A stretch of 52,483 nt of DNA from a virus. Taxonomy: Duplodnaviria; Heunggongvirae; Uroviricota; Caudoviricetes. Below, in pieces: positions 3,001-6,000 of this stretch. The DNA lies in IMG/VR virus record IMGVR_UViG_2877251553_000005; one strand, 5' to 3'. Position 1 is the first letter of the stretch. The number at the start of each line of letters is the position of its first letter. Made by a program: the position numbers.

Positions 3001-6000
3001 GGTTGTTTGCGCATTGATGCGGAAATGCGCTTCCAGTCTTCGCGATCTTTGTCGATAACTTCATTTTTTGCCCAGCGATGGATGCTGCCGTCAATGTTTC
3101 CGGTATCAATATCGCCAGGCCAGAGAGCGTAGGCCAGTTCTTCATCCAGCGTTTTCCATGTCTGCTTGTATTCGCGACAAATGGCGGCAGTGACTGGGTT
3201 GATTTTTCCTGCTGAGTTTTCAGTGTTCTGTTGATTGACTCTGGCGCTGGCGAGATCAACAACAGACGTGTATTTTCCAGTCTCTTTGCGCTCTGCGTCC
3301 TGCCGTTTTTTCCAGTTACGTAATTCAGCCTGAATTTCGGGCCATTTGGCACCCGGATTACATTTGTGTTTAACCCATCCGATAGCGAACAGTTTGCGTT
3401 CCGGATACATAGCGTTAATTTCAGGCGTTTTCATCAGTGCTTCAACGATATGCCCGTCAAAGGTAGCAACGTCTTCCTGCAGTAATTCCTGCGCGTCAAT
3501 CGCCATATCAACGGTGATGTTTTCACATGTACCGAACTTAACCAGGACCGCGTTCTGTACTTCAAGGGACAGCTTGTCAAAATTGACGTTCATCGGATCG
3601 GATTCTGGTTCGACCGGAATAAAGGAAGCGGATTCCTCATCCCAGCGGTTTTCCTGCATATATTCAGCATCCCAGGAATCGAGGGCAGGGCGGGGTATAC
3701 CGGGTTTATCCTCGCAGACAAGAAATTTATAAGCGCAGTCCTGAGCAGCCGGATAATGTTCCAGGAATTGCCAGTGAAATTTTGCGCGGGCGCGACGTTC
3801 ATCACCGGCTTCAATGGCAGTGGCTACAGCGACGGCACCTTCTTCCTTTATTGCCTGTTCGTCCGGAATGGCGGCGCAAATAAAGACTTTACTCATTTTG
3901 TTTTAACCTCATTACAGATTTCAGGGTGAACGAATCCCTGCCATTGCTGGCATTTTTAATCCGTTGGTATGGCGTTAATATGGCTGGCGGGTTATCCAGC
4001 CGGTATTTCGTTATTCAGGTTCAGCGATACTTTTTTTAACGGGAGGCATTCACCGGGGATTTTTTGTTCGTCCCTTACCTGAATGCAGGATGACTTACTG
4101 TCATAAATTCCGGTAATCACATTTTGTGGCTCACCCGTTATAAGAAAAACGGTCATCACCAGTGCAAATGCTGAAGTCACTGCTGTTCTCCGATAATACC
4201 AAGTTCAAGAAGGGCAATTCTGGAAAGTATGGAATTATCATTGAGAAGATAAGGTTCATATTTTCTCATCTTAATGGCATCTTCCGTAAACTCCCGGTTA
4301 CTGAGCAGAACACCAATATCAAAACAACCGGTAATGACTCCAACTTATTGATAGTGTTTTATGTTCAGATAATGCCCGATGACTTTGTCATGCAGCTCCA
4401 CCGATTTTGAGAACGACAGCGACTTCCGTCCCAGCCGTGCCAGGTGCTGCCTCAGATTCAGGTTATGCCGCTCAATTCGCTGCGTATATCGCTTGCTGAT
4501 TACGTGCAGCTTTCCCTTCAGGCGGGATTCATACAGTGGCCAGCCATCCGTCATCCATATCACCACGTCAAAGGGTGACAGCAAGCTCATAAGACGCCCC
4601 AGCGTCGCCATAGTGCGTTCACCGAATACGTGCGCAACAACCGTCTTCCGGAGCCTGTCATACGCGTAAAACAGCCAGCGCTGGCGCGATTTAGCCCCGA
4701 CGTATCCCCACTGTTCGTCCATTTCCGCGCAGACGATGACGTCACTGCCCGGCTGTATACGCGAGGTTACCGACTGCGGCCTGAGTTTTTTAAGTGACGT
4801 AAAATCGTGTTGAGGCTAACGCCCATAATGCGTGCAGTTGCCCGGCATCCAACGCCATTCATGGCCATATCAATAATTTTCTGGTGCGTACCGGGTTGAG
4901 AAGCGGTGTAAGTGAACTGCAGTTGCCATGTTTTACGGCAGTGAGAGCAGAGATAGCGCTGATGTCCGGCAGTGCTTTTGCCGTTACGCACCACCCCGTC
5001 AGTAGCTGAACAGGAGGGACAGCTGATAGAAACAGAAGCCACTGGAGCACCTCAAAAACACCATCATACACTAAATCAGTAAGTTGGCAGCATCACCAAA
5101 CAACCTTCAGACGTATTAACGTTTGGTAATAACGTTTCCATTATCGCGTCCTCAACAATGAATTTTGTGATGCGGTGCCTGGTGCCTCCAGGTGACGTTA
5201 ACCAGTTAACAATTAACGCCGGATACAGAGAATCCACCCATAACACTGTTTTTGGTTTTAACTGTTCTGCGTGCGCTCAGCCGCATTCACCACATCACAA
5301 AATTCACTTTAAAAAGGGCGGCAGAGCAGTCACGGAGTAAAACTGATACCGCCAAACGTCACCAGAAAATTGATAACAGAGGGCGTTGCAGCGGGGTTGT
5401 CACTTAAGCGTATGGTCAACCTGACAACCCGGTGTCCTCAGCGGGGAAGGAATAACCCCGCCATACTTACCGCCGCGCCATTTCGCGGATTGCCACAACC
5501 GGAAGCGCACGATCGAATTAAATTTAACGACGACCTATACAGAGAGACTAACTTCTCCGGGCGCTTTCGTGTTATGCCCTGACTTTTCAGGGATATATCC
5601 TTTTCAGTAAACTGTCAGTGCCGGATTCTTATCCGTGTCCGGCGCACGCACTCTACCTCACCTGTGAATAAATTAATGATTAATTGATATTTTGTTGTTT
5701 GATTCAACTTTCCCATCGGATGTGTGATGCTTTAAATCACAGGAATTAATACTGCTTGCTGTAAAATGATTTTCAAGGGTTCTATTCGAATCCCTTTCTT
5801 TTTCATTAACAAGCCAAACCCTTATCAATGATGTCCATTAGATCCAGGAAGTATTTTTCATGTAAATCCTGGTTATCAGAGAGCTGCTTCTCTTCGTACA
5901 GCCCGATAAAGGCTCGGCGTACGTTACCGGATATATTGTCGATGGTTTCTTTTTCTACGGTACTCAGGTCAAGAGTCGCCAGTTGAGAGCGAACCACATT

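Follow-up and report, generated by a model that had tools for sequence, protein, structure and literature searches.

IS1 within codon 15 of dicB in a lambdoid prophage, with the upstream DicF RNA gene intact

Introduction

When an insertion sequence lands in a prophage operon that encodes both a toxic protein and a small RNA, which of the two is lost, and does the event call for any explanation beyond the general spread of insertion sequences? This question is raised by a stretch of viral DNA of 52,483 nucleotides (IMG/VR record IMGVR_UViG_2877251553_000005), hereafter the window, in which IS1 lies inside dicB and downstream of the gene for the DicF RNA. The window holds one nearly complete lambdoid prophage, with integrase, Q, lysis, terminase, portal, capsid, tape-measure and J genes and a tail fibre at ~50.5 kb. 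In sister loci the prophage adjoins ompW, and the names carried by exact matches to its exonuclease and by the 52-aa remnant ORF described below are Shigella and Shigella dysenteriae.

The product of dicB has high toxicity (PMC4967827), and part of the cell population turns the operon on spontaneously (PMC10448788). DicB also blocks the ManYZ-dependent DNA entry of phages lambda and 434 (PMC6832061), so that the effect on phage susceptibility given in a preliminary description of this locus is correct.

Results and discussion

A complete IS1 element lies within the dicB reading frame

The preliminary description held that a dicB-like frame is split by a complete IS1 with an 8-bp target duplication. 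The anatomy of the element, which comprises the following features, bears this out.

4330-5097, minus strand: complete IS1, exactly 768 bp, with insA and insB co-oriented with dicB
5075-5097 (IRL) and 4330-4352 (IRR): terminal inverted repeats of IS1, 23 nt, imperfect, located by an inverted-repeat search
4322-4329 (left copy) and 5098-5105 (right copy): 8-bp target duplication, AAACAACC, a direct repeat around IS1
4767-5042, minus strand: insA, 91 aa, with the Pfam domains Zn_ribbon_InsA and HTH_Tnp_IS1
4345-4722, minus strand: insB reading frame with the DDE domain (Pfam DDE_Tnp_IS1, E = 2.9e-74)

The element has both the length of 768 bp and the inverted repeats, GGTGATG... and GGTAATG..., of the IS1 family, the two 23-nt arms being 78% complementary. 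As is characteristic of the family, insA and insB lie in consecutive frames and are joined via a -1 frameshift at an A6C motif (4785-4791). The fusion reconstructed in this way, InsAB', is 232 aa long and matches the NCBIfam model transpos_IS1 with 246.6 bits against a cut-off of 100. With both inverted repeats, InsA, the A6C site and InsAB' present, this copy is apparently transposition-competent. The window has no other IS1 copy. This one shares 98.4% identity with a copy annotated as IS1B in E. coli LR-06; the annotations underlying its E. coli matches name transposases of the IS1A and IS1B families. Target-site duplications of IS1 are usually 9 bp long and at times 8 bp. The duplication found here is of the shorter kind, since its extension to 9 bp fails, and AAACAACC is present on both sides of the element and as a single copy at the empty sites described below.

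The two flanking segments are halves of one dicB gene

The sequences on either side of IS1 contain the remnants of dicB and a short residual reading frame.

5098-5141, minus strand: dicB 5' fragment, ATG at 5141, 44 nt (14 codons and 2 nt), translation METLLPNVNTSEGC
4177-4329, minus strand: dicB 3' fragment, GCFDIGV...GEQQ followed by the stop, codons 13-62 and stop with the duplicated bases counted
5076-5141, minus strand: residual ORF from the dicB start, 21 aa, consisting of 14 DicB residues and LVMLPTY from the IS1 end, then a stop

The 5' fragment, which includes the right-hand copy of the duplication (5098-5105), matches the 5' end of K-12 dicB almost perfectly. The codon split by the element is codon 15, in agreement with the insertion "15 codons" into the gene that had been reported from first inspection. 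When IS1 and one repeat copy were deleted in silico, an ORF of 189 nt encoding 62 aa was restored. Its product matched the Pfam DicB profile (PF05358) over positions 1-62 of 62 with E = 3.7e-38 and 129.5 bits (cut-off 27), and the NCBIfam model CellDivInhibDicB (NF049927) with 111 bits (cut-off 100). The repaired ORF thus has the length of about 62 aa and the end-to-end profile match of the DicB family, and the N- and C-terminal segments are halves of a single dicB gene, as had been proposed; in the window as it stands, the gene is disrupted.

The interrupted allele would be null. Translation from the dicB start would end after 21 residues, and the 3' remnant would be left with neither a canonical start, no ATG, GTG or TTG being present before Met33, nor the N-terminus that is needed. 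In K-12 DicB, the truncations N26, deltaN2 to deltaN26 (deltaN13 included) and deltaC12 to deltaC20 were all non-lethal, and the loss of just the residue after the initiator Met abolishes lethality (PMC4967827). Because these truncations lose lethality, neither remnant should keep the lethal division-blocking activity, if one extrapolates from a K-12 protein with which the DicB encoded here shares 38 of 62 residues. The K-12 results support the earlier claim that dicB function is lost. The phenotypes expected to disappear with it are the MinC-dependent inhibition of cell division and the inhibition of ManYZ that blocks entry of lambda and 434 DNA.

Two further details concern the 3' fragment. 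The TAA stop of insB (4345-4329 region, minus strand) is in frame with it and lies five codons upstream. Public annotation places at 4177-4335 (minus strand) a 52-aa "cell division inhibition protein DicB [Shigella]" that starts at an ATT inside the IS1 end; this annotated "DicB" of public Shigella records is the 3' remnant of the interrupted gene and not intact DicB.

DicF and the sequences upstream of the insertion are preserved

Upstream of dicB, two further elements of the operon were located.

5316-5368, minus strand: DicF sRNA gene, intact, 53 nt identical to K-12 dicF (b1574)
5159-5306, minus strand: long hairpin between DicF and the dicB start, with 19-nt arms that are 95% complementary and a fold z of -4.15

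Rfam family RF00039 matched at 5316-5367 with 76.7 bits, against a gathering score of 48, over model positions 1-52 of 52. This full-length match, together with the identity to K-12 over 53 nt, confirms the earlier statement that the insertion left the upstream DicF untouched. As expected in a dicBF-type operon, the gene has ydfA/ydfC-type genes on its upstream side and dicB on its downstream side, and the insertion lies ~210 nt beyond its 3' end. The hairpin at 5159-5306 is likewise intact and, as judged from the alignment, conserved with K-12. In K-12, DicF derives from a transcript starting at dicBp, its 5' ends being made by RNase III as well as RNase E, and a ydfABC-dicF transcript of 1146 nt ends at DicF (PMC10448788). 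Because the determinants of DicF production all lie upstream of the insertion, by at least 170 nt, any firing of the operon promoter should still yield DicF.

The K-12 Qin prophage offers the closest frame of comparison. It has the same gene order, namely a DicA-like repressor, a Cro-like gene, a DUF1391 gene, DicF, dicB, ydfD and the exonuclease. DicF is 100% identical in the two prophages, and the region from DicF to dicB codon 18, including the long hairpin, is ~99% identical. In contrast, DicB shares 38 of 62 residues overall and 13 of 31 in its C-terminal half, and YdfD shares 30 of 63. The two also differ in what insertion sequences have hit: in K-12 it is IS2 in ydfE, not in dicB, and here it is IS1 in dicB. 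Furthermore, the prophage analysed here is nearly full-length and lies beside ompW, unlike Qin. Alignment of the window (~4270-5480) with Qin reveals a sharp mosaic boundary inside dicB, and from codon ~19 onward dicB and ydfD show ~45-50% protein identity. The IS1 insertion is located just inside the conserved side of this boundary, which extends from DicF to codon 18.

Genes downstream of dicB may be affected by polarity

Downstream of dicB the operon continues towards the integrase.

3992-4180, minus strand: ydfD-like gene (DUF1482, PF07358), 62 aa, Pfam score 56.4 bits against a cut-off of 25
1422-3896, minus strand: YdfE-type 3'-5' exonuclease, 824 aa, Pfam Rv2179c-like, next downstream in the same operon
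1-1131: integrase, from the domain and profile annotation of the window

The ydfD-like gene has the profile score and the position of YdfD/DUF1482, directly after dicB. Its GTG start and the dicB stop share bases (GTGA), and a GGAG of its own precedes the start by 7 nt; no NCBIfam model matched its product. The exonuclease gene is followed by xis and then int, and the sister loci carry the annotations YdfE_N, YdfE_C, Exc and integrase. In classical genetics, IS1 exerts strong Rho-mediated polarity in either orientation. On this basis it is plausible that the element is polar on ydfD and the genes downstream, and most of the ~590 nt that separate the insA stop from ydfD would go untranslated. 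On the operon strand from the insA stop to ydfD, no terminator-like or intrinsic terminator site was found, and this stretch is neither C-rich nor G-poor and shows no C-over-G bias, so that the sequence itself lends polarity no direct backing.

Filled and empty sites occur among close relatives

Positions 1-9896 of the window are 100% identical to CP026825.1 (assembly GCA_002949915.1), and both IS1 junctions are also found in CP026807.1, CP026823.1, AKNG01000031.1 and CP045784.1. The junction ORF is carried by 22 contigs; several draft contigs stop inside IS1, and one begins right at the target duplication. Five sister assemblies have precisely the empty site, with just one AAACAACC; their 824-aa exonuclease is identical to that of the window, and so, at 100%, is their 430-nt dicB-distal flank. 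Of 5426 complete E. coli genomes, 1018 contained the repaired 825-nt sequence in a single place. The top matches among these had 99.6-99.8% identity, aligned in one piece and were annotated as dicB and a DUF1482 family protein. The insertion at codon 15 of dicB was found in none of the 5426 genomes. A comparison with uninterrupted dicB in relatives, which the preliminary description had suggested, therefore yields empty alleles in the five sister assemblies as well as in the 1018 E. coli genomes, and the natural empty sites with a single copy, together with the 8-bp duplication, uphold its reading of the event as a simple transposition. Judged from these alignments, the shared junctions mark the insertion as real and inherited, and the ancestral state is an uninterrupted dicB.

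In E. coli, 20 places with at least 80% coverage of the IS1-bearing structure turned out to be IS1 copies elsewhere in the operon. Counted over complete genomes, IS1 occupies seven or more other positions of dicBF-type operons, and dicB is annotated as intact in all of them. As here, the element sits in the same operon and in the same orientation, at positions that include the following.

LR-06: IS1 ~10 nt upstream of dicF
JBEHAAB-19-0176: IS1 upstream of dicB
Swine ETEC: IS1 inside ydfD
Strain 21319: IS1 after ydfD
TW10573: IS1 inside the exonuclease gene
RIVM clone: IS1 between ydfC and the 124-aa gene

IS1 seems to insert often in the dicBF-type operon. Its positions in these E. coli operons follow no pattern in which DicF is spared and DicB removed.

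The insertion fits the background of IS decay in Shigella

We consider it very probable that a simple IS1 transposition created a dicB null allele, kept DicF and forms part of Shigella genome decay. A single event would have brought a complete, apparently active IS1 into codon 15 of dicB in a lambdoid prophage beside ompW. The host would belong to a Shigella lineage, in which the allele would then have been inherited vertically, remaining polymorphic among close relatives. Transcription from the early-left promoter into ydfD, the exonuclease gene, xis and int would probably be lowered by IS1 polarity. The insertion would be one of hundreds of IS insertions that accompany the decay of Shigella genomes; since DicB is both dispensable and toxic, the event may have been tolerated or slightly favourable.

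In Shigella, each chromosome harbours 229-348 IS copies, IS1 and IS2 being among the five IS that have expanded in all species, and IS insertions make up a large share of pseudogenes and of the variation from strain to strain (Hawkey et al. 2020, PMC7373316). The window resembles this picture in its IS1 and IS2 content and in the variation of the dicB pseudogene between strains. Its three elements per 52 kb (one IS1 and two IS2) equal the genome-wide Shigella density and fit the range of 229-348 per chromosome, so that the dicB insertion needs no special explanation. The main text of that study mentions neither dicB nor prophages, and a search of the literature for dicB with IS1 and Shigella, and for the accession numbers, found no description of this insertion site. 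The event is an ordinary case, in a Shigella genome, of IS1 turning a known prophage gene into a pseudogene; none of its parts is new, and public assemblies already contain the allele. What it offers is an allele that is naturally dicB-null and dicF-positive and has isogenic relatives with the empty site; it has little import beyond annotation at the strain level. The allele could serve to separate the effects of DicB from those of DicF in Shigella, such as filamentation and ManYZ-dependent phage entry.

Alternative explanations

Selection may have played a larger part than this account allows. The insertion could have been favoured for removing toxic DicB, and perhaps for silencing the YdfD lysis protein, with DicF being kept for regulation that benefits the host. 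This appears rather unlikely. The high toxicity of DicB (PMC4967827) and the spontaneous firing of the operon in a subpopulation (PMC10448788) speak for it, as does the position of the insertion just downstream of an intact DicF. The allele is also present in many assemblies of the lineage, among them the 22 contigs with the junction ORF, and for 169 of 250 exact-exonuclease blocks the longest contig measures 10-20 kb, the size at which IS1-broken draft contigs end. However, sisters with the identical exonuclease and more than 1000 E. coli genomes keep an intact dicB, so DicB is tolerated. Furthermore, the IS density of the window equals the Shigella background (PMC7373316), and the E. coli IS1 insertions in the operon do not consistently spare DicF.

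A stronger form of the same idea is that a toxin-and-sRNA operon was converted by selection into an sRNA-only module, in which YdfD and excision are silenced by polarity and DicF is retained. Such a domestication, which we hold to be quite improbable, would, if true, fix the prophage in its site in a pathogen restricted to humans.

Alternatively, IS1 might act as a mobile promoter or provide read-out, by which ydfD and the exonuclease, or a C-terminal fragment of DicB, would be expressed independently of the repressor. We give very little credence to such rewiring, although IS1 is co-oriented with the operon and has a promoter-like match in IRL (5090-5063), the insB stop is in frame with the 3' part of dicB five codons upstream of it, and ydfD retains its own Shine-Dalgarno sequence. 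The IS1 promoter is generally known to be weak and repressed by InsA, the 3' fragment has no canonical start before Met33, and YdfD made constitutively would lyse cells, and selection should act against it. N-terminally truncated DicB is, moreover, inactive (PMC4967827).

Finally, the quality of the source assembly deserves attention. Compared with three sister assemblies, the window shows zero or one substitution and nine single-base deletions (at 5447, 5780, 5822, 6676, 6976, 7043, 7105, 8436 and 8571), all of them in G/C runs of 4-6 bases, and the IS2 copy at 13194-14523 is also one C short, in a C5 run. These nine deletions are probably assembly errors, the signature of an unpolished long-read consensus, and none of the homopolymer deletions falls within 4177-5368. 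That a repeat-induced misassembly placed an IS1 copy into dicB of such an error-bearing long-read assembly has next to no probability, because five assemblies deposited independently share both junctions and empty sites exist in nature, draft contigs from short reads are interrupted precisely at the edge of IS1, the 8-bp duplication around IS1 is perfect, and the homopolymer errors differ in kind and are absent from 4177-5141.

The deletions mimic frameshifts in several genes, namely the dicA-like repressor gene, a cro-like gene, ydaT, the 124-aa gene upstream of DicF and replication genes. One of these lies in the repressor gene of the operon.

6399-6805, minus strand: dicA-like repressor gene, appearing as split ORFs in the window and encoding a 135-aa HTH protein in sister assemblies

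A real frameshift at 6676 would have linked the knockout of dicB to derepression of the operon. It was rejected as a one-base homopolymer deletion, because the IS1-bearing sisters have an intact 135-aa repressor and the nine differences from sister assemblies are all one-base deletions in G/C homopolymers.

Other features of the prophage

The two IS2 copies of the window lie further along the prophage.

13194-14523 and 23560-24890: IS2 copies in direct orientation, 10.4 kb apart and 99.6% identical to each other

They have separate target duplications, AAGA(T) and GTGGG, and because each has its own, they represent independent insertions with no recombination between them. One copy is found beside a hok/sok locus, and the other follows a SASA-esterase/DUF6645 gene. 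Rfam searches located the sok antitoxin RNA of hok/sok at 14882-15057 and two tandem copies of the STnc100 sRNA at 20371-20564 and 20840-21028. Genes for tRNA-Met(CAT) and tRNA-Arg(TCG) are located at 19946-20105; they lie downstream of a DNA methylase gene, which itself comes after Q. The sok RNA, the tRNAs and STnc100 are typical cargo of the lambdoid late region, and no Stx-sized ORFs were found after the tRNA and STnc100 genes.

Towards the end of the window, a repeat of ~200 nt (50909-51170 and 52023-52218, 86-95% identical) brackets a gene on the opposite strand that encodes a 222-aa protein with a methyltransferase domain (51205-51873, minus strand). This gene has the appearance of a moron that entered a duplicated region for tail-fibre assembly, and the same region after the tail-fibre gene (50909-51170 / 52023-52218) contains a match to the RNA family IS009. 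A 423-aa ORF at 36529-37800 (minus strand), antisense to tail genes and with no Pfam or NCBIfam match, is probably a chance ORF. Inside the 1005-aa tail-fibre gene, three tandem repeats of 132 nt (48967-49362, 62-77% identical) correspond to Phage_fiber_2 repeats.
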